Below, in pieces: positions 3,290 to 53,421 of a stretch of 64,000 bases of DNA; position 1 is the first letter of the stretch, and every line of letters starts with the position of its first letter. This stretch comes from Oscillospiraceae bacterium (GTDB lineage Bacteria > Bacillota > Clostridia > Oscillospirales > SIG627). The position numbers were made by a program, and so were the translations under genes. The DNA lies in contig SVRV01000007.1 in assembly GCA_015064635.1 (NCBI GenBank), forward strand, positions 20,602 to 84,601. The letters run 5' to 3'. The notes beneath the pieces are model-generated. The model was not told the DNA's origin and searched no databases. It worked only from the letters and a program-made list of their open reading frames with translations.

Positions 3290-4186
3290 TTACTTTGCCT
3301 TGTATTCAATAAAACGCTTGAGAATTGTCGCCATTTCGGCTCTTGTAAGTGTATCCTGGGGTGCAAGTGTGTCAACGGTCTTGCCGTTTATAAGCTTATT
3401 TGCAACCGCCCATTTCATTGCACTCAATGCCCAGGATGATACCTTATCCGCATCCTCATAGCTTGTTATTTCAAAGGAAACGTCATTCAGGCTGATTTCG
3501 TTATTGTAATTATAGAGCATAACAGCCATTTGCTCTCTTGTTATTTCTCTGTCGGGAGCAAACTTGTTGTCACCAACACCGCCGACAACCTTATTCTCAA
3601 AGCCCCATGCCGCCGCCTTGGCGTACCAAGCATCTGCCGCCACGTCAACAAAAGGAGTTCCGACAGCTTCTGGCTCTTTTTCAAGTCTGTAAATTATTGT
3701 TATTGCCATTCCTCTTGTAACCGAAGCATCGGGAGCAAATTCGGTGTCCGAGGTGCCCATCATTATCTTGTTGTTGTAAGCATAAACAACATTGTCATAA
3801 AACCAATCACCCGGCTTTACGTCAGCAAACTCGGGAGCCTTTGTTTCCTCAGGCTGAGTTGTAGGTTCTGACGGTTTGGGAGTGGGTTTAGGGTTGGGTT
3901 TGGGATTCGGCTTGGGTGTAGGTGTTTCCGTATCAGTATCCGCATCGGGAGTTGTATCCGTATCGGGGATTGTGTCCATGTCGGGATTTGTGTCCGTGTC
4001 GGGATTTGTGTCCGTGTCGGGATTTGTGTCCGTGTCGGGATTTGTGTCTGGTTTTGGATTTGCGGGAACACCGTCAAATATGATACTTGAATCTATCTCT
4101 CCCGAATCCTCCGCTGTTAAATCTGCAAAAGCAACAGTGTTTAAGAGTAGCGAAATAATAGAAACAATTATAAGTGCTTTTTTCAT
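3290..4186 (-). CDS. S-layer homology (SLH) domain cell-wall anchor protein with acidic/proline-rich repeat stalk
   Basis: The real start is MKKALIIVSIISLLLNTVAFA (ATG 4186..4184, GGAGG RBS). The 349-aa track ORF reads through the upstream hairpin. Order of parts: signal peptide, ~25-aa N-terminal segment, (DTNPDT)n and (PKPN)n linkers, then three SLH-like repeats (FADVKPGDWFYDNVVYAY.., FVDVAADAWYAKAAAWG.., YEDADKVSSWALSAMKWA..). Confidence 0.85.
   Translation of the reverse strand: MKKALIIVSIISLLLNTVAFADLTAEDSGEIDSSIIFDGVPANPKPDTNPDTDTNPDTDTNPDTDTNPDMDTIPDTDTTPDADTDTETPTPKPNPKPNPKPTPKPSEPTTQPEETKAPEFADVKPGDWFYDNVVYAYNNKIMMGTSDTEFAPDASVTRGMAITIIYRLEKEPEAVGTPFVDVAADAWYAKAAAWGFENKVVGGVGDNKFAPDREITREQMAVMLYNYNNEISLNDVSFEITSYEDADKVSSWALSAMKWAVANKLINGKTVDTLAPQDTLTRAEMATILKRFIEYKAK
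3945..4052. repeat. 18-bp in-frame tandem repeat (~6 copies, TCGGGATTTGTGTCCGTG on + strand) encoding (PDTDTN)n
   Basis: Three perfect adjacent copies at 3981..4034 are flanked by degenerate copies. The repeat lies inside the SLH gene linker. Confidence 0.9.
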
Positions 4187-4422: not shown

Positions 4423-7011
4423 TTAGTCTCTGAAAAGGGCTGAGCCCGACATCTTATTTTTGATTATTTTATCGGTCATGGTTGTTTCCTTACCGAGAAT
4501 TTCATTGCCTTCAAGGTCAACCGCATAAGGTGTTATAATAATCTTTGCATTAGCGTTTGTATACACATCGGCATTAAGAAGGATTTCACATCCGAATACA
4601 TACTCACCGCCAAGCTGTTCGGCTGTATAAACCGTTTCAGCTGTTTCTGCCGCATTTGTAACCTTCATGCTGCTATATACTGTGGTTGTGCTGAGCTTCT
4701 GTGTCTGCTCAAGGTAATTGCCGTCCATATCAATAACAGTTACCTTGAAGCCTACCTCGCTGTACTTGAGAGTATCAACAGCCGCACAAACAGTAAGTCT
4801 GTTATAGCCTTCCTTAGCTGCCATGTTGTTGACAACAAGGAGCTTCTGCATAATTTCTACCTTTTCGGCAGGAGTATAATCAAAATCATTTTCCTCGCTG
4901 ACAGACCAATCGGTTCCGTTCTCAACATACTCACCGTTTACAAGCTCTGTTTCAAAAAGCTTAAGGTTAAGTCCGAGAGTTGCACCCTCCTCAGCGATTT
5001 CAAAGGATTCCGCACCGAAGGGATTGAAGGATTCATCGGCAGCAAGTGCTTCAAGAACTGCCTGCTTTGCTTCTTCGTTGAATGAAGGATTGTTCAAAAG
5101 GAACTCTTCATCGTTATCGCACATTACTCTGTAAATTGCACGGAGAACATCCTCGGAAAGAACTACAGCAACGCCGTCGAAGGACTGAACCATGAGAACC
5201 GCGTCAAGATAGTTGCAGGTCCATAAGGGGTTAATCTGTTCAAGCAAATCCATAACTCTTACGGATTCACCCGCCTTGATGTTCACGATACCCATGGGGA
5301 TAGTACCGTATGAACCGTAGTTACCGAGAAGAATCGCCGATACATCCTTATCGGATGAAACAAGGAAGTCGGGGTTGTAGTATGCATAAGGAGCATTGAG
5401 AGCTGACTCATAATCCTCAACAGTCTTGAAATTCATACCGTATACAGATGCTTCGGGGTTGTTGAGGTTGTTGTAGATAGCTTCTATAAGGTCGCCCTTA
5501 TACTCAGGGTTTGAATCGGCAAAGAAGGCATCAAGTGCCGCCTTGTCCAGTGAAGAAGATTCATAGAGAGGAACTGTGGGATAGGATATGAAGTTTGTCT
5601 CCTCACCGATGTCAAACTTCTCGCCTGTCTTTACAGGCTTACCGTCTCCGTCAAGAGTTGTCTCATAAAGGTCAACGCCCAATGTAAGACCGGTTGCTTC
5701 CTCTACCTTTTCAAAGGATTCTGCACCAAGGGGATTTGCAGATGAAAGAAGGAGATTGAATACTGCTTCCTCATCATATTCGCCCTCGCCCGCAACCTTA
5801 TGGTATGCACGGAGAACATCCTCTGTAACGGGGATTGCAACACACTTAAATTCTTTAACAAGAAGAACTATGTCGGCGTATGTGAAATTAGCCCATGCCT
5901 TGTATGCGGGAATGGTTGCCGCTGTCTCCATTACGTTTACGGGAACTCCCGCCTTCATGCTGACTATACCTGCGGGGATAGTACCGTATGAACCGTAGTT
6001 GCCTACAAGAAGTACGCAAACATCTGTTTCGGATACTATTTCAAAATCTACTATGTAGTTTGCATAGGGAGCGTTGATTGCGGTCTCGTAATCCTCTGTT
6101 GCAGTATATACCATGCCGAATGCCGCATTCTCGGGATTTTCAAGTGCATCGTAAACAGCATCCACTACATCTCCGCCGTACTGCGCGTTGCCTGCATCAA
6201 AGAAAGCTTCAAGCTCTTCCTTTGTCATTTCGCGTGAATCGTACACGGGAACTTCGGGATAGTAAACGAACTCTTCCTTTTCAACTACCTCATACTTTAC
6301 TTCTGTTCTTTCGAACTTGCCCTCCGAAACCTCAACGGATTCGTAAACATCAAGTCCTACGCTGAGGGGAGCTGAACCCTCTACCTTTTCAAATGACTCC
6401 GCACCGAGAGGATTAGCCATGTCAAGAAGCTCAGCAAGAACTGCCTCTTCATTGTACTCACCCTCGCCCGCAACCGCGTGATATGCACGGAGAACATCCT
6501 CTGTAACGGGGATTGCAACACATCTGAATTCGCCTACAAGGAGAACTATATCCGCATATGTGAATCTTGCCCAAGCCGCACAGCCGGGAAGCTTTGAAGC
6601 GGTCTCCATTACATTTACAGGCTCATTCGCCTTAAGGTTTACAATTCCCACGGGGATAGTACCGTATGAACCGTAGTTGCCTACAAGGAGAACTGCCGCA
6701 TCCGACTTTGAAACAATTTCAAAATCTACTATGTAGTTTGCATAAGGCTTGGTTATTGCTGTCTCATAATCTTCAACAGCTGTATAAACCATACCAAAGG
6801 CTTCGTCCTTGGTTTCAAGTGCATCGTAAAGGTCGCCTATGAGGTCGCCCTTATACTCAACATTACCATCGTCAAAAAATGCTTCAAGCTCTGCCGCTGT
6901 CATTTCGCGTGCTTCATAGGGAGGTGTCAATTCTTCAGCAAACGCCGAAAGAGAGAACACAACAACCGCCATCATAACAGCAAGCAATGTGAATTTGATC
7001 TTTCTGCTCAT
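4423..7011 (-). CDS. Secreted 862-aa protein: signal peptide, three ~225-aa tandem repeats of an unrecognised domain, and a C-terminal ~135-aa module
   Basis: Signal peptide MSRKIKFTLLAVMMAVVVFSLSAFA. Repeats cover about aa 29-251, 252-477 and 478-715, each carrying ELEAFFD.GN, DYETAI..PYANYIVDFEIVS, GNYGSYGTIP.GIV and EDVLRAYH motifs. The C-terminal module resembles the N-terminus of the 1..2582 protein. Confidence 0.85.
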   Translation of the reverse strand: MSRKIKFTLLAVMMAVVVFSLSAFAEELTPPYEAREMTAAELEAFFDDGNVEYKGDLIGDLYDALETKDEAFGMVYTAVEDYETAITKPYANYIVDFEIVSKSDAAVLLVGNYGSYGTIPVGIVNLKANEPVNVMETASKLPGCAAWARFTYADIVLLVGEFRCVAIPVTEDVLRAYHAVAGEGEYNEEAVLAELLDMANPLGAESFEKVEGSAPLSVGLDVYESVEVSEGKFERTEVKYEVVEKEEFVYYPEVPVYDSREMTKEELEAFFDAGNAQYGGDVVDAVYDALENPENAAFGMVYTATEDYETAINAPYANYIVDFEIVSETDVCVLLVGNYGSYGTIPAGIVSMKAGVPVNVMETAATIPAYKAWANFTYADIVLLVKEFKCVAIPVTEDVLRAYHKVAGEGEYDEEAVFNLLLSSANPLGAESFEKVEEATGLTLGVDLYETTLDGDGKPVKTGEKFDIGEETNFISYPTVPLYESSSLDKAALDAFFADSNPEYKGDLIEAIYNNLNNPEASVYGMNFKTVEDYESALNAPYAYYNPDFLVSSDKDVSAILLGNYGSYGTIPMGIVNIKAGESVRVMDLLEQINPLWTCNYLDAVLMVQSFDGVAVVLSEDVLRAIYRVMCDNDEEFLLNNPSFNEEAKQAVLEALAADESFNPFGAESFEIAEEGATLGLNLKLFETELVNGEYVENGTDWSVSEENDFDYTPAEKVEIMQKLLVVNNMAAKEGYNRLTVCAAVDTLKYSEVGFKVTVIDMDGNYLEQTQKLSTTTVYSSMKVTNAAETAETVYTAEQLGGEYVFGCEILLNADVYTNANAKIIITPYAVDLEGNEILGKETTMTDKIIKNKMSGSALFRD

Positions 7012-9086: not shown

Positions 9087-9272
9087 TGTATATCTCCTTT
9101 AAGTTATTATAACAGGGCTTTGCCCTGTACCCACTTAAAACCTTTTTATAAAAAGGTTTTAAGAATTCCAAAAATTTTAATGATGTTTATTCTTTAGCTT
9201 TGTTACCTTATTCTATGGAAGAAAACCGAAGGTTTTCAACCACAATTATTCATTATTCATTATTCATTATTC
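9087..9272. repeat. Intergenic mosaic hairpin element, locus A (argD/argF spacer)
   Basis: Hairpins at 9113..9127 (CAGGGCtttGCCCTG), 9135..9162 (28-nt palindrome) and 9221..9237 (GAAAACCgaaGGTTTTC), plus (ATTATTC)x4 at 9245..9272. The units recur at loci B, C, D and E. Confidence 0.85.
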
Positions 9273-10426
9273 ATTGCTTCAAGCAATACCTCTACCGCAG
9301 CCTTCAGCTCGTCCCATGTGATATTGAGGGGAGGAAGAAGTCTTACCTTATTTTTAGCCTTTATTGCAATAACGCCCTTTTCACGGCAAGCGGAAAGTAC
9401 CTCGGCAACGTCCTTTTCGCACTCGATGCCTATCATAAGACCCGCACCGCTGACACTCTTGACACCGTCGGCTCCGTTGAAGGAATCGAAGATGTATTTG
9501 CTCTTTTCTCTGACCTCGGCAAGAAGTGTGTCGTCAATTCTCGAAACAATGGAAAGTGCGCCTGCACAAGCCACGGGATTACCTCCGAAGGTTGAACCGT
9601 GGTCCCCGGGCTTCAGTGTATCCTTCACCTTTTCGCCAAGCATTGCAAGTCCAAGGGGAAGTCCTCCGCCAATGCCCTTTGCGGTGGTAACAATATCGGG
9701 TGTAATTCCGTAATTCATATAGTTATAAAGCGCTCCGCAACGTCCGTTACCCGTCTGCACCTCGTCAACAATAAGAAGGATATCTTCCTTTTTGCCTATC
9801 TCTGCAATGGCTTCAACAAAATCCTTTTCAAGAGGAAGAACTCCGCCCTCACCTTGGACGGTTTCAAACATAATAGCGGCAACCTTATTTTCCGAAACAA
9901 GACGCTTTACGTCATCAATATTATTCGCCTCGGCATAAACAAAGCCTTCTGTCAAGGGGAGGAAATCCTTATGGAAGGTATCCTGACCCGTTGCGGCAAG
10001 CATTGAAATGGTTCTGCCGTGGAAGCTGTTTTTGAGTGTTATTACCGTATTGTATTCCGCACCTTTTTTTTCTGCGGCATACTTTCTTGCCACCTTTACG
10101 GCGGTCTCGTTTGCCTCGGCACCCGAATTGGAGAAGAACACCTTCTTCATGCCCGTTCTCTTACAAAGTGTCTCCGCAAGCTTTGCGCAAGGCTCTGAAT
10201 AGAAGAGATTGGAGGTATGATGAATCTTACCGAGCTGTTCTGTTACAGCCTTTATCCACTCGTCATCGGCAACTCCGAAAACATTAACTGCAATACCTGT
10301 GCCAAGGTCTGTATATTCTTTTCCGTTTTCGTCAACTACCTTTGCGCCCTTTCCCGAAACAAGTGTTACGGGGAATCGTCCGTAGGTATTTGCGACATAT
10401 TCTTTATCAAGCTCTTGTATACTCAT
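9260..10426 (-). CDS. argD: Acetylornithine aminotransferase
   Basis: 388 aa class-III aminotransferase (DIVTTAKGIGGGLP lysine context). ATGA overlap with the argB stop. Confidence 0.9.
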   Translation of the reverse strand: MSIQELDKEYVANTYGRFPVTLVSGKGAKVVDENGKEYTDLGTGIAVNVFGVADDEWIKAVTEQLGKIHHTSNLFYSEPCAKLAETLCKRTGMKKVFFSNSGAEANETAVKVARKYAAEKKGAEYNTVITLKNSFHGRTISMLAATGQDTFHKDFLPLTEGFVYAEANNIDDVKRLVSENKVAAIMFETVQGEGGVLPLEKDFVEAIAEIGKKEDILLIVDEVQTGNGRCGALYNYMNYGITPDIVTTAKGIGGGLPLGLAMLGEKVKDTLKPGDHGSTFGGNPVACAGALSIVSRIDDTLLAEVREKSKYIFDSFNGADGVKSVSGAGLMIGIECEKDVAEVLSACREKGVIAIKAKNKVRLLPPLNITWDELKAAVEVLLEAMNNE

Positions 10427-11298
10427 TTGTTCGCCCTCTTTTCAACCACCATTGTACCTGCGCCCTCATCGGTCAGCGTTTCGATAAGTATTGAGTGAGG
10501 AATTCTTCCGTCCATTATGAATACCTTCTTAACGCCACGCTTTATCGCTTCGATACAGCATTCAACCTTGGGTATCATACCGCCCGATATAATACCGTCG
10601 TCAAAGAGCTTCTTTGCATCCTCAAGGTCAATTTCGGAAATAAGTGAGGATGGGTCATCCTTGTCCCGAAGTATTCCTGCGATATCGGTCATTGCAATAA
10701 GGCTCTCCGCCTCCATTGCACCTGCGATATATGATGCGGCGGTATCCGCATTGATGTTGTACACATTGCCATCCTTATCACATCCCACAGTTGAAACAAC
10801 GGGGATATATCCCTTTTCGAGAAGGTCAATGATGGGCTGTACATTTACATTTGTGATTCTGCCAACATATCCGAGTCTTTCATCCTTCATTTCGGCTTCA
10901 ATCATGCGTCCGTCAAGTCCGGATATACCCATTGCCTTACCGCCCTTGGATTCAAGGAGGTTTACAAGTCCTTTATTTATTTTGCCCGCAAGCACCATAA
11001 GTGCTATTTCGGCGGTTTCCTTATCCGTGACTCTGAGTCCGTCAACAAATTTGGTTTCCTTGCCGACACGGTTGAGCATATCTGTAATTTCGGGTCCTCC
11101 GCCGTGCACAAGCACGACCTTGACACCGATAAGGTGCATGAGCACAATGTCCTCCATGACATTCTGCTTGAGCTCCTCGTTTATCATGGCGTTTCCGCCG
11201 TATTTCACAACGAGTATCTTTCCGTTGTAATTCTGTATGTAAGGAAGCGCTTGGGTAAGTATTTCCGCACGCTGTGCATTTGTAACATTTAATGACAT
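10423..11298 (-). CDS. argB: Acetylglutamate kinase
   Basis: Start at MSLNVTNAQR (ATG 11298..11296, AAGGAGA RBS). AAK-family motifs VVKYGGNAM and LVHGGGPE. The longer track start falls inside the repeat element. Confidence 0.9.
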   Translation of the reverse strand: MSLNVTNAQRAEILTQALPYIQNYNGKILVVKYGGNAMINEELKQNVMEDIVLMHLIGVKVVLVHGGGPEITDMLNRVGKETKFVDGLRVTDKETAEIALMVLAGKINKGLVNLLESKGGKAMGISGLDGRMIEAEMKDERLGYVGRITNVNVQPIIDLLEKGYIPVVSTVGCDKDGNVYNINADTAASYIAGAMEAESLIAMTDIAGILRDKDDPSSLISEIDLEDAKKLFDDGIISGGMIPKVECCIEAIKRGVKKVFIMDGRIPHSILIETLTDEGAGTMVVEKRANK

Positions 11299-11516
11299 AA
11301 ATTCTCCTTTTAACCGGGGGGGCTTTGCCCTTGAACCCACTAAGAAACTATTTAATGTGTTTTTTATTATAATTCTTTGCTACCCTATCCTACGGAAGAT
11401 TTGCTGAAAGCAAATCAACCATAACGTTTGCGAAGCAAACATTTCACGTGACTTCAGTCACATTTCACCCATCCGAAGGATGGATTTCACTGACATAATG
11501 GCTCCGCCATTATGTC
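11299..11516. repeat. Intergenic mosaic hairpin element, locus B (argJ/argB spacer), including a hairpin/ATTTCAC array
   Basis: Hairpins at 11398..11416, 11426..11440, 11448..11461, 11469..11483 and 11492..11516. ATTTCAC linkers (GTGAAAT in gene sense) sit at 11441, 11462 and 11484. The last hairpin overlaps the argJ stop codon. Confidence 0.9.
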
Positions 11517-12727: not shown

Positions 12728-12916
12728 ATATATCTCCTTAAAGTTTAGTTATCTTACGGTGTTATTTTTGGGTGAAAACCGAAACAATGCACAGTGCTCA
12801 GTGCACAATGCACAATTAAGGAAGATTTTGCGAAAGCAAAATCAGCCAAAATTATTCGTGATTCATTATTCATTATTCACTATTCATTATTCATTGCATA
12901 ACGCACAGCGTTATGC
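12728..12916. repeat. Intergenic mosaic hairpin element, locus C (argC/argJ spacer)
   Basis: A 5' UTR cassette at 12728..12783 is shared with the GH43 gene. Hairpin at 12824..12843. (ATTATTC)-type heptamers x6 at 12851..12892. Hairpin GCATAACGCacaGCGTTATGC at 12896..12916 abuts the argC stop. Confidence 0.9.
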
Positions 12917-17947: not shown

Positions 17948-17956
17948 TAAATAATT

Positions 17957-17994
17957 GGAGAAGGGTGCTTTTGAAGTCAAAAGCACCCTTCTCC
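17957..17994. terminator. Perfect 16-bp stem hairpin between convergent genes
   Basis: GGAGAAGGGTGCTTTTgaagtcAAAAGCACCCTTCTCC. Neither side has a strong T tract, so it may be a terminator or an RNA stabiliser. Confidence 0.5.
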
Positions 17995-18047
17995 AAACCT
18001 CATCCCGAAAAACAATGTTTGAAATTTTATTATTAATTAATATCCTT

Positions 18048-18126
18048 AATTTTAAAGTTTTTGGAATTCTTAAACCTTTTTTCAAAAAGGTTTAAGCGGT
18101 TCCAAGGCAGAGCCTTGGCAGGGGTT
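18048..18126. repeat. Intergenic mosaic hairpin element, locus D
   Basis: About 75 nt align to the reverse complement of locus A (9111..9180), with compensatory changes in both hairpins. Confidence 0.8.
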
Positions 18127-52029: not shown

Positions 52030-52563
52030 CATAACGCTGTGCGTTATGCAGTGAAATGTTTTGACGTTGTCAAAACGTGAAATTCACCTTCGGTGAGTGA
52101 AATGTGACTGAAGTCACATGAAATGTTTGCTTCGCAAACGTTAAGGTTGATTTTCTTCGAAAATCTTCGATTGATTATAGCGGACCGTCGAGGACGCCGG
52201 TCCCTACAAATGTATTTGTTGCAAAAGTGGGTAAAGAGACGAAAGTGAGTCGAGCAGAAAGCAAAGTATTGCGAAAAAAGACGAAAAAATTTCAAAAGGT
52301 GGGAGTTTTGGAGGGAAAATCGCGGAGTGCGAAGGCGTCGGCGTACTTATGTACGCCAGTCCGAGCAACACGCGAAGAAAATGAAATTTTCACTGATGGA
52401 GAAAACCTTTGGTTTTCAACAAAAGAAGAAATGCTTTGGGGAGCGATTTGTTCGCACTACAAAAGCGTGGGAGTGAACACAGCCGAAAATAAACAACTAT
52501 TTCATTTTCGGTTTTCACCCAAAAATCATCACCGTACGATAACTAAACTTAAAGGAGACATAC
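52029..52563. repeat. Intergenic mosaic hairpin element, locus E (largest; polC/GH43 spacer)
   Basis: A hairpin/GTGAAAT array at 52029..52165 starts on the last base of the polC stop codon. Further hairpins at 52183..52204 and 52348..52365 and around 52399..52421 and 52482..52511. The terminal 5' UTR/RBS cassette (52507..52563) is ~90% identical to the one in front of argJ. Confidence 0.9.
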
Positions 52564-53421
52564 ATGGAAATATTGCAGGGCGCTGACCCTTTCATCCTTC
52601 TTCATGACGGAAAATACTACTGTTACCCCACATCCGACTCACATAACGGATACATCGTTTACGAATCCGACGACCTGATAAACTGGACAGACCGAGGATA
52701 CTGTCTCGTAAAGGATGATGTTATGGGTAATGACAACTTTTGGGCGCCGGAGGTAACCTATTATAACGGAAGGTTCTATATGGTATATACCGCCAATCTT
52801 CACCTTGGGATAGCGGTCGCCGACAGTCCTTTAGGTCCCTTCAAGCAGACAGAGAAAAAATGGTTGAGTGAGGACAGAGCTATTGACGGAAGCTTTTTCA
52901 TCGACGATGACGGAAGCGTCTACCTTTACTATGTGGGATATAACAATCCGGGCGGTCCCATATGTGTAAACCGCCTGTCAAAGGATCTGCTTTCCTTTGA
53001 CAGTGAGCAAAAGGTGCTCATCCGTCCCACTCAAGAATGGGAGCTTGTGACCGCCTACGAATATGAGGGTCAAACCCTTTGCGTAACCGAAGGACCTTTT
53101 ATGCTGAAGCACAAAGGGAAGTATTATCTCTCCTACTCCGCAAATGACTATCAGAGTCCGTCCTATGCCATAGGATACGCTGTTTCCGACTCTCCCATGG
53201 GTGATTTTATGAAGTATGAAAATAATCCGATTCTTATAGGAAGCGGTGAGATTCAAGGCACAGGTCACCATTCCTTTACTACAACAAAGGATAAAAAAGA
53301 GCTGATATGTGTTTTTCATGCACATAACAGCAAAACCGAAATTCATCCGAGAATGACACACATCCTACCCGCAAGGTTTGTAACCGAAAACGGCGAGGAT
53401 GTGCTGAAGATATCAAATTAA
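52564..53421 (+). CDS. GH43 family glycoside hydrolase
   Basis: 285 aa with ADPFILLHDGKYY, FWAPEVTYYNGRFYMVY and EGPFMLKHKGKYYLSYS. Confidence 0.85.
   Translation: MEILQGADPFILLHDGKYYCYPTSDSHNGYIVYESDDLINWTDRGYCLVKDDVMGNDNFWAPEVTYYNGRFYMVYTANLHLGIAVADSPLGPFKQTEKKWLSEDRAIDGSFFIDDDGSVYLYYVGYNNPGGPICVNRLSKDLLSFDSEQKVLIRPTQEWELVTAYEYEGQTLCVTEGPFMLKHKGKYYLSYSANDYQSPSYAIGYAVSDSPMGDFMKYENNPILIGSGEIQGTGHHSFTTTKDKKELICVFHAHNSKTEIHPRMTHILPARFVTENGEDVLKISN

Follow-up and report, generated by a model that had tools for sequence, protein, structure and literature searches.

The DNA analysed here (the window) is a 64,000-nucleotide stretch from an Oscillospiraceae bacterium (GenBank assembly GCA_015064635.1, contig SVRV01000007.1, positions 20,602 to 84,601 of the forward strand). 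Its minus strand carries arginine genes in the order argC-argJ-argB-argD-argF, and the argD-argF spacer contains a pair of hairpins, copy A. A homologous pair, copy D, lies between two convergent genes, one encoding a 443-amino-acid (aa) protein of unknown function and the other belonging to the GDPD family. We present evidence that A and D are probably two copies of a new, modular, multicopy, noncoding intergenic repeat family resembling REPIN, BIME, and BOX elements, with any effects on neighboring genes secondary. The parts of the two copies are given below with the analyses that support them; R1 is a covariance model of the family built from 49 diverse members.

9164..9182, minus strand: 5′ polarity tract of copy A (CATTAAAATTTTTGGAATT), which includes the family's AAAGTTTTTGG-type U-tract (R1 model positions 1-21).
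9134..9163, minus strand: hairpin 1 of copy A (AT-apex), CTTAAAACCTTTTT-AT-AAAAAGGTTTTAAG, 14 bp (folding, hairpin scan, R1, family covariation).
9112..9128, minus strand: hairpin 2 of copy A (GC), ACAGGGC-AAA-GCCCTGT, a triloop with a C-G closing pair (folding, alignment, family test).
18050..18068, plus strand: 5′ polarity tract of copy D (TTTTAAAGTTTTTGGAATT) (alignment, R1).
18069..18096, plus strand: hairpin 1 of copy D, CTTAAACCTTTTTT-C-AAAAAGGTTTAAG, 13 bp (folding, hairpin scan, R1).
18102..18118, plus strand: hairpin 2 of copy D, CCAAGGC-AGA-GCCTTGG (folding, alignment).

The similarity of the two loci was first pointed out in an earlier note made from the sequence alone, and the sequences it quoted for A and D were found where it had placed them. 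The homology is real, but it spans about 66 to 70 nt rather than the 75 nt originally described: local alignment of 9112-9182 (minus strand) with 18050-18118 (plus strand) gave 57 identities in 66 ungapped columns and two single-base gaps. The 17-mer TTTTTGGAATTCTTAAA is exact in both copies and absent from the rest of the 64 kb (chance expectation, 0.6 with up to 3 mismatches). Alignment and folding also bore out the statement that both hairpins are fully paired in A and D through compensated changes. From A to D, the two gaps in stem 1 drop one A·T pair symmetrically, one base from each arm; in hairpin 2, a G-C pair has become A-T by a double change, and D has one pair more. In both copies, hairpins 1 and 2 are the minimum-free-energy folds (z, −2.8 to −5.4); the opposite strands fold equally well, and folding is therefore silent on which strand matters. 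In copy D, TTGGAA (18061-18066) can pair with TTCCAA, lengthening hairpin 1 in competition with hairpin 2. R1 matched A at full length (9131-9184, 66.2 bits) and D at 18048-18099 (61.4 bits) and nothing else convincing across the window. Rfam searches at A and D, at the gathering threshold and with E up to 10, returned nothing relevant (best match, freshwater-2, 30.5 bits against a threshold of 49.9), and no relevant Rfam family was found at 18 related loci.

An exact-pattern search for the core plus the stem-1 foot, using one genome per species, returned 108 matching stretches, about 100 of which are true members, in 44 metagenome-assembled genomes (MAGs). The guts of goats, sheep, deer, and yaks are the source of nearly all hosts, which are MAGs classed as Oscillospiraceae, "Clostridia," or "Eubacteriales"; in addition, three Maridesulfovibrio chromosomes and one Desulfovibrio MAG (Desulfovibrionaceae) carry the same element with the same flanks. 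Carriers include JAZSMC01, CAZKBF01, SFLN01, JAFTVG01, CAZYTA01, and Maridesulfovibrio NZ_CP182344. The species representative closest to the window organism is the Oscillospiraceae MAG CAZYTA01 (94% ArgF identity); the window organism itself is contained in goat and sheep gut samples such as JGI 3300024268 and 3300029705. Up to 27 canonical copies occur in one MAG, many of them at contig ends. R1 identified about 180 full-length members in 751 kb of related DNA, and a structure-aware hairpin scan of the pattern-matched loci found 201 hairpins with a T-run/A-run apex versus about 1 per shuffled set. Among viral contigs there were six matches, all by chance, inside coding sequence and without a hairpin, and a distant-mode search of a plasmid collection gave no match. 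The family is filed under bacterial interspersed intergenic repeats, outside any named family.

In the orientation of the A/D alignment, an arm of the repeat consists of rAAAGTTTT(T)GG, a few bases, hairpin 1, and then at least one GC hairpin. The apex of hairpin 1, CTTTTT-loop-AAAAAG, is conserved, and its outer stem is variable yet perfectly palindromic. The structure-aware scan recovered outer stems that are entirely replaced but still complementary: CCAGAACC/GGTTCTGG, CATAGAAAC/GTTTCTATG, CAAGCC/GGCTTG, and CTTAGGTGC/GCACCTAAG. The head is followed by GC hairpins with C-(G/A)NA-G triloops, numbering from one to at least three, and the unit holds no open reading frame (ORF). Coding potential was ruled out, as loop-length changes are not multiples of three and every frame is broken. 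The loops of hairpin 2 are mainly GGA (36 copies), AGA (24), AAA (12), and GAA (7), with a C-G closing pair in 88 of 98 copies; the d(C-GNA-G) triloop has unusual stability as DNA and far less as RNA (PMC3201870, PMC13037366). A GCRAAGC mini-hairpin is found repeatedly on the upstream side of the U-tract in several lineages, the Desulfovibrionaceae copies among them.

The palindrome of hairpin 1 could in principle be a duplex-DNA operator of a dimeric regulator, for instance of the arginine genes at locus A. The inverted repeat in hairpin 1 is perfect, and copy A stands upstream of argF in an operon with other repeated motifs (ATGAATA heptamers). Half-site spacing, however, varies by up to 6 nt, and half-sites are replaced wholesale with complementarity kept, which a sequence-reading dimer would not tolerate. 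The neighboring genes are also unrelated (pflA, def, coaX, guaA, argH, and others), and copy D lies between two gene ends, so an operator is very improbable. Readings as a sigma-70 or sigma-54 promoter, ARG-box, CodY-box, attC site, or CsrA site, compared by eye with the consensus sequences, were rejected on misfits in spacing or key bases.

A set of copies selected for hairpins is circular for any percentage of pairing, and members were therefore re-ascertained by the U-tract and the T-run/A-run apex, anchors outside the tested stem. In this set, the eight positions of stem 1 outside the apex are Watson-Crick paired in 0.59 to 0.77 of 82 distinct copies, versus 0.27 to 0.59 with permuted partners and less in slid registers, and several pair types occur at each position. 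A MAFFT alignment contained double-sided changes in 11 of 14 stem-1 pairs (90 cells versus 28 ± 4 after shuffling). In a model-fitted alignment of 134 distinct copies, 12 of 14 pairs were double-sided, with 163 cells versus 19 ± 4 (0/500 shuffles). Hairpin 2, which was unused in finding copies, occurs in 98 of 102 copies, its stem in 44 versions; 52 copies have at least 5 perfect pairs there versus about 4 expected. Both hairpins are structurally maintained across the family. Unpaired substitutions as frequent as paired ones, which the earlier note had named as the mark of a stem without selection, were not seen across its copies.

The same alignments bear on the nature of the constraint. G·T and A·C mismatches in stem 1 are about equally frequent (34 versus 38 in the re-ascertained set); in the model-fitted alignment, one-sided wobble changes number 13 against 163 two-sided changes, and G·U makes up <1% of cells. 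The constraint does not look like that on an RNA acting from one strand. Two conserved, covarying hairpins in intergenic DNA without coding potential might also suggest a family of genes for trans-acting small RNAs, like the nearby candidate Gut-1 (RF01706), of which Rfam copies occur in the same genome. Such genes would not be expected to look like these copies, which lack both a conserved promoter at constant distance and a terminator 3′ of the hairpins, lead straight into the ribosome-binding site (RBS) of the next gene, and occur in both orientations and as inverted doublets. There are tens of copies per genome, with freely varying stems and no conserved single-stranded seed except the U-tract, and we give a small-RNA family very little credence.

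Placement was counted from 150 model-defined copies, with genes called by a codon-scored caller. All but one (149/150) are extragenic, in DNA that is 82% coding. The GC-hairpin end lies a median of 41 nt from a gene and the U-tract end a median of 144 nt; the GC end points toward a gene start in 67 cases and a gene stop in 72. Co-directional spacers hold 42 copies in sense and 30 that are antisense to both neighbors. The flanking genes have no common function. The earlier note had observed that at both loci the upstream gene is sense on the aligned strand; this is literally true but does not discriminate at D, where the genes are convergent.

Stable hairpins just 3′ of genes, on the sense strand as that note had it, would suit unusual terminators of the upstream genes. 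Yet the hairpins of A, of D, and of the family are not followed by a T-run on either strand, and the U-tract is 5′ of them. Ordinary terminators with a GC stem and T-run are used elsewhere in the window and genome; a terminator scan found no terminator-like site at A, which is internal to the arg operon and immediately precedes the argF RBS. A terminator role is extremely improbable.

Placement offers more to a cis-acting mRNA element, intercistronic or in a 5′ or 3′ untranslated region, that protects against exonucleases or tunes translation and owes its duplication to its usefulness. The ends of forward copies very often lie 14 to 70 nt before an RBS and start codon, and both window copies are placed where transcription would cover them. 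In three species, a GCC-GGA-GGC mini-hairpin is the Shine-Dalgarno sequence of argH-like genes, supplying GGAGG 4 to 5 nt before the ATG. The evidence on the other side is that the stems lack wobble enrichment or strand bias, that the GC end meets gene stops as often as starts, that antisense copies number 30 versus 42 sense ones, that the neighbors share no function, and that triloops of the d(GNA) type are preferred over the tetraloops typical of stable RNA hairpins (PMC13037366). Close relatives also lack the element at both window loci, as described below. We regard this explanation as unlikely. The structured sense-strand RNA downstream of genes that the earlier note implied finds no support, given the parity of G·T and A·C, the few wobbles, the lack of preference for starts or stops or for a strand, the missing T-run, and the status of both loci as insertions. 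Wobble-free, perfect-palindrome covariation, symmetric orientation, and insertion polymorphism are the reasons for which we favor a DNA-level interspersed repeat over an RNA acting from one strand. The element is best read as a repeat and not as a dedicated riboswitch, terminator, or small RNA.

The arrangement of neighboring copies is strongly ordered. Inverted doublets of the "< >" type number 22 and pairs of the "> <" type 0, with 3 pairs of the ">>" and 2 of the "<<" type; spacing is 60 to 216 nt, with GC ends outward and a variable center. Singlets such as copy D are frequent. The arms of a doublet often have different stems (CGCAATTTTTT versus GGGGCGGCTTTTT in L074; GGAACC versus CTTAAAACC in L073), and their mutual complementarity is limited to a 10- to 12-nt A-tract and U-tract. 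In L074, three tandem units of about 180 nt occur within 2.7 kb; left and right hairpins differ within a unit and the units are alike, which implies that the asymmetric doublet is what is copied. A long-range helix between A-tract and U-tract is available in many doublets but was rejected for want of covariation.

Comparison with relatives shows gain and loss at both loci. For locus A, ArgF homologues on an identity gradient were used to reach the orthologous argD-argF junction in six relatives. The spacer is 173 nt in the window and 193, 320, and 146 nt in three relatives, each filled site with different content; in the other three (90%, 89%, and 76% identity), argD and argF are separated by 4 nt or 3 nt or overlap (−4), with tight GAAAGGA-TAA-n-ATG coupling. 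At locus D, three relatives have a 33- to 60-nt spacer with a plain bidirectional terminator alone and no repeat copy. Both window copies are insertions absent from close relatives. Across the family, reverse hairpins at orthologous sites show multi-base compensated differences; identity in unselected parts is 0.54 to 0.56 within a genome versus 0.29 to 0.35 between genomes, and private variants occur, such as a CTTCAG loop in all 12 copies of two MAGs. The repeat is extragenic and doublet forming, with subfamilies specific to a genome and copies clustered in tandem; it comes and goes at gene junctions and keeps its hairpin symmetry without RNA-type wobble.

Several observations weigh against a mobile or spreading repeat. 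The pflB-pflA, ilvC-coaX, priA-def, and argG-argH junctions keep both arms in two to five species while the center changes; this fits very slow turnover but also a retained function, and for the first three junctions it counts in favor of a cis-acting mRNA element. Strain-level contigs (argF, 443-aa gene) have identical spacers, with no ongoing movement seen. Filled and empty argD-argF junctions show no target-site duplication and no sharp insertion boundary. No mobilizing enzyme turned up: among the ORFs of at least 90 aa in about 800 kb around copies, a motif search for RAYT and Y1 transposases picked out a single IS200-type TnpA and no RAYT, which does not prove absence from the whole genomes. 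Of 66 exact-pattern forward copies, 49 run in the sense of the upstream gene, a bias that vanishes in the model-based set because reverse partners are then counted. Finally, the head is near-identical across 44 species, which is unusual for normally species-specific REP-type repeats, although its invariance in the first sample is partly due to exact-pattern searching. As a separate observation, the sole Y1 transposase in the 800 kb is an IS200/IS605-type TnpA of 159 aa (HIHML...YIRNQ) at L074:328-807 (minus strand), where it adjoins one repeat unit.

The closest systems in behavior are REP/BIME/REPIN sequences of Pseudomonas and Enterobacteria (PMC3116915, PMC6006769, PMC2817692) and the pneumococcal BOX element. 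The former are likewise short extragenic palindromes in tens to hundreds of copies that form inverted doublets with a less conserved spacer and tandem clusters, show compensatory hairpin changes, belong to genome-specific families, persist long at a site, and have hairpins thought to be active in single-stranded DNA (ssDNA) or mRNA. They differ in the RAYT gene, not seen near any copy of the new family in the DNA searched; class-2 TnpA-REP is not reported as common in Clostridia (PMC6006769). The GT[AG]G guide of REP/REPIN is present inconsistently: before the GC hairpin, the new family reads AAG[C/T][G/A]G, with GTGG in A and many other copies and GCGG or GCAG in D and many others. Its arms are 60 to 70 nt long with at least 2 different hairpins and an asymmetric U-tract. 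The arms of REP/REPIN doublets pair with each other, whereas those of the new family often carry unlike stems that cannot pair, and the fixed spacing of REP/REPIN contrasts with the range found here. The head of the new family is, moreover, common to many species and two phyla.

BOX, RUP, and SPRITE (PMC3049150) are also intergenic modular mosaics of Firmicutes with variable numbers of internal modules and extensive secondary structure; they are cotranscribed with neighbors, have no transposase themselves, show slow turnover, and are regarded as parasites with secondary effects on expression. BOX is built as boxA-(boxB)n-boxC, in which A pairs with C, whereas in the new family each module forms its own hairpin and the GC triloop hairpin is the variable-number module. 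Compared with the published description of BOX, hosts and consensus are visibly different, with no sequence similarity apparent, and BOX has a much narrower phylogenetic range. Miniature inverted-repeat transposable elements (PMC3184786, PMC10969869) are similar as 150- to 350-nt noncoding units bounded by inverted repeats, intergenic, and polymorphic among relatives. The new family differs from them in having no target-site duplication in the argD-argF comparison and no matching parent insertion sequence; inverted arms bound its doublets, but these "terminal repeats" are hairpin modules that are often non-identical, and single arms are common.

The family probably spreads, or is homogenized, as DNA, through a process that reads or copies its hairpins in ssDNA, as has been proposed for REP/REPIN with RAYT enzymes (PMC3116915, PMC6006769). 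Candidate agents are an HUH-type enzyme, again as for REP/REPIN, and repair or recombination templated by the hairpins. Resident copies would be cotranscribed with their neighbors, with side effects. At locus A, the insert would split the otherwise translationally coupled argD and argF and place TGTTATAAT and two strong hairpins upstream of the argF RBS. A bolder proposal, which we think rather improbable, is that of a portable gene-boundary module, common to Clostridia and Desulfovibrionaceae and read by a conserved host or mobile protein that recognizes and acts on hairpins in ssDNA; it would be more than a parasite, gene junctions would be its insertion sites, its GC end would be set toward the gene, its mobilization would be of a non-RAYT/IS200 kind, it would have been repeatedly co-opted for RBS, −10, and mRNA-end hairpins, and Gut-1 would belong to the same modular system.

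Further features at the two loci and elsewhere in the arg operon are as follows.

9087..9259, minus strand: argD-argF spacer, 173 nt, an insertion compared with relatives that have a 3- to 4-nt gap or an overlap (comparison of orthologous junctions).
9106..9114, minus strand: TGTTATAAT (extended −10-like), at the outer end of copy A (by sequence).
9217..9241, minus strand: hairpin GGTTGAAAACC-TTC-GGTTTTCTTCC just past the argD stop (by sequence; no R1 match).
11320..11346, minus strand: probable relic of the 3′ part of the family before argB, TTCTTAG-TGGGTTCAAGGGCAAAGCCC (compare TTTTAAG-TGGGTACAGGGCAAAGCCC in A) (by eye, unscored by R1).
17955..17996, no strand assigned: 19-bp hairpin beside copy D with a T-rich tail on the minus strand (terminator scan, relatives).

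The argF start is preceded by a AAAGGAGA RBS and, 20 nt before the ATG, by TGTTATAAT, a putative promoter element; a TTATAAT tail is likewise found 3′ of the GC hairpin in several relatives (L038, L041, L068, and L078). The hairpin at 9217..9241 occupies the place of the reverse-oriented partner in other species and is too diverged for a model score. It overlaps a promoter-like TTGAAA-18-TAGAAT upstream of copy A, which would suit a cis-acting RNA and is no better than chance expectation. The putative relic before argB has no hairpin 1, and its hairpin 2 is broken, with 4 bp remaining. Four ATGAATA heptamers (9245-9274, minus-strand sense) overlap the argD stop codon, and similar heptamers follow argC (12851-12905); the relative L138 has three TGAAGAT heptamers at the argD-stop position and inverted heptamers just before argF. 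Either an arginine-regulator site or a further repeat module could account for these heptamers. A recurring leader, TTTTCGGTTTTCACCCAAAAAT.ACACCGTAAGATAACTAAAC..AAGGAGA, stands directly upstream of argJ (12728-12790, minus strand), of the gene starting at 52564 (52480-52563, plus strand), and of argF in L134 (2440-2500), and is a candidate arg-specific 5′ leader.

At the convergent junction of locus D, the hairpin at 17955-17996 is the sole terminator-like one and acts on the minus strand, so that transcription of the GDPD gene would run through copy D in the antisense direction. R1 matches 17957-18022 weakly (16.8 bits; E, ~0.1), with a weak likeness to a reverse family copy; this match was dropped as the reverse partner of D, since relatives show a plain terminator there. 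The hairpin is most likely the native, ordinary terminator of the junction and the counterpart of those plain terminators. In the closest syntenic relative of locus D, a barstar-family gene (L140:3132-3455) that is absent from the window lies between the 442-aa gene and the GDPD gene. This difference points tentatively to the 443-aa protein as a possible secreted toxin or RNase-like partner.

Gut-1 matches the window at 11416-11492 (minus strand) and 52049-52127 (plus strand), with 52 and 60 bits. The first copy, made of tandem "GTGAAAT + hairpin" modules with UUCG/UGAA loops, fills the argJ-argB spacer, which measures 169 nt (by ORF coordinates 10423-11340). The same spacer is 10 to 11 nt in the relatives L136 and L137, and this copy is therefore also an insertion. 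A sub-threshold Gut-1-like module lies beside a head variant in the argD-argF spacer of L134. Gut-1 has been published solely as an orphan noncoding RNA candidate from gut metagenomes (PMC2864571). Like the new family, it consists of small hairpin modules in series and occupies a spacer that is absent from close relatives, within the same genome and operon; it differs in its GTGAAAT motif and tetraloop hairpins, and A and D do not score as Gut-1. At the 18 other loci, Gut-1 was not found near the element.

Two other regions of the window are rich in repeats. The 534-nt spacer at 52030-52563 is dense with hairpin modules, and an approximately 70-nt module of it, cgcggagtgcgaaggcgtcggcgtac...gtacgccagtccgagcaacacgcgaagaaaatgaaatttt, is also present in the argD-argF spacer of the relative L135. 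The gene for an 862-aa protein (4423-7011) contains three tandem repeats of about 678 nt with 71 to 76% identity, and a neighboring gene (3927-4052) has 18-nt tandem repeats; both look like repetitive, surface-protein-like coding sequence.

The family is a previously undescribed, widespread repeat in lineages known from MAGs alone, the Oscillospiraceae of ruminant guts, and it accounts for assembly breaks at the sites of its copies. Its lesson for comparative work is that covariation in two hairpins is insufficient to call a structured RNA. A 45-nt head almost unchanged across phyla, without a visible RAYT, may aid the search for new hairpin-dependent mobilization. Gut-1, in the same operon, also acts as an inserted module, which may change the reading of that Rfam motif. 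For its hosts, the family remodels operon junctions, breaking the coupling of argD to argF and sometimes supplying the Shine-Dalgarno sequence of the next gene.

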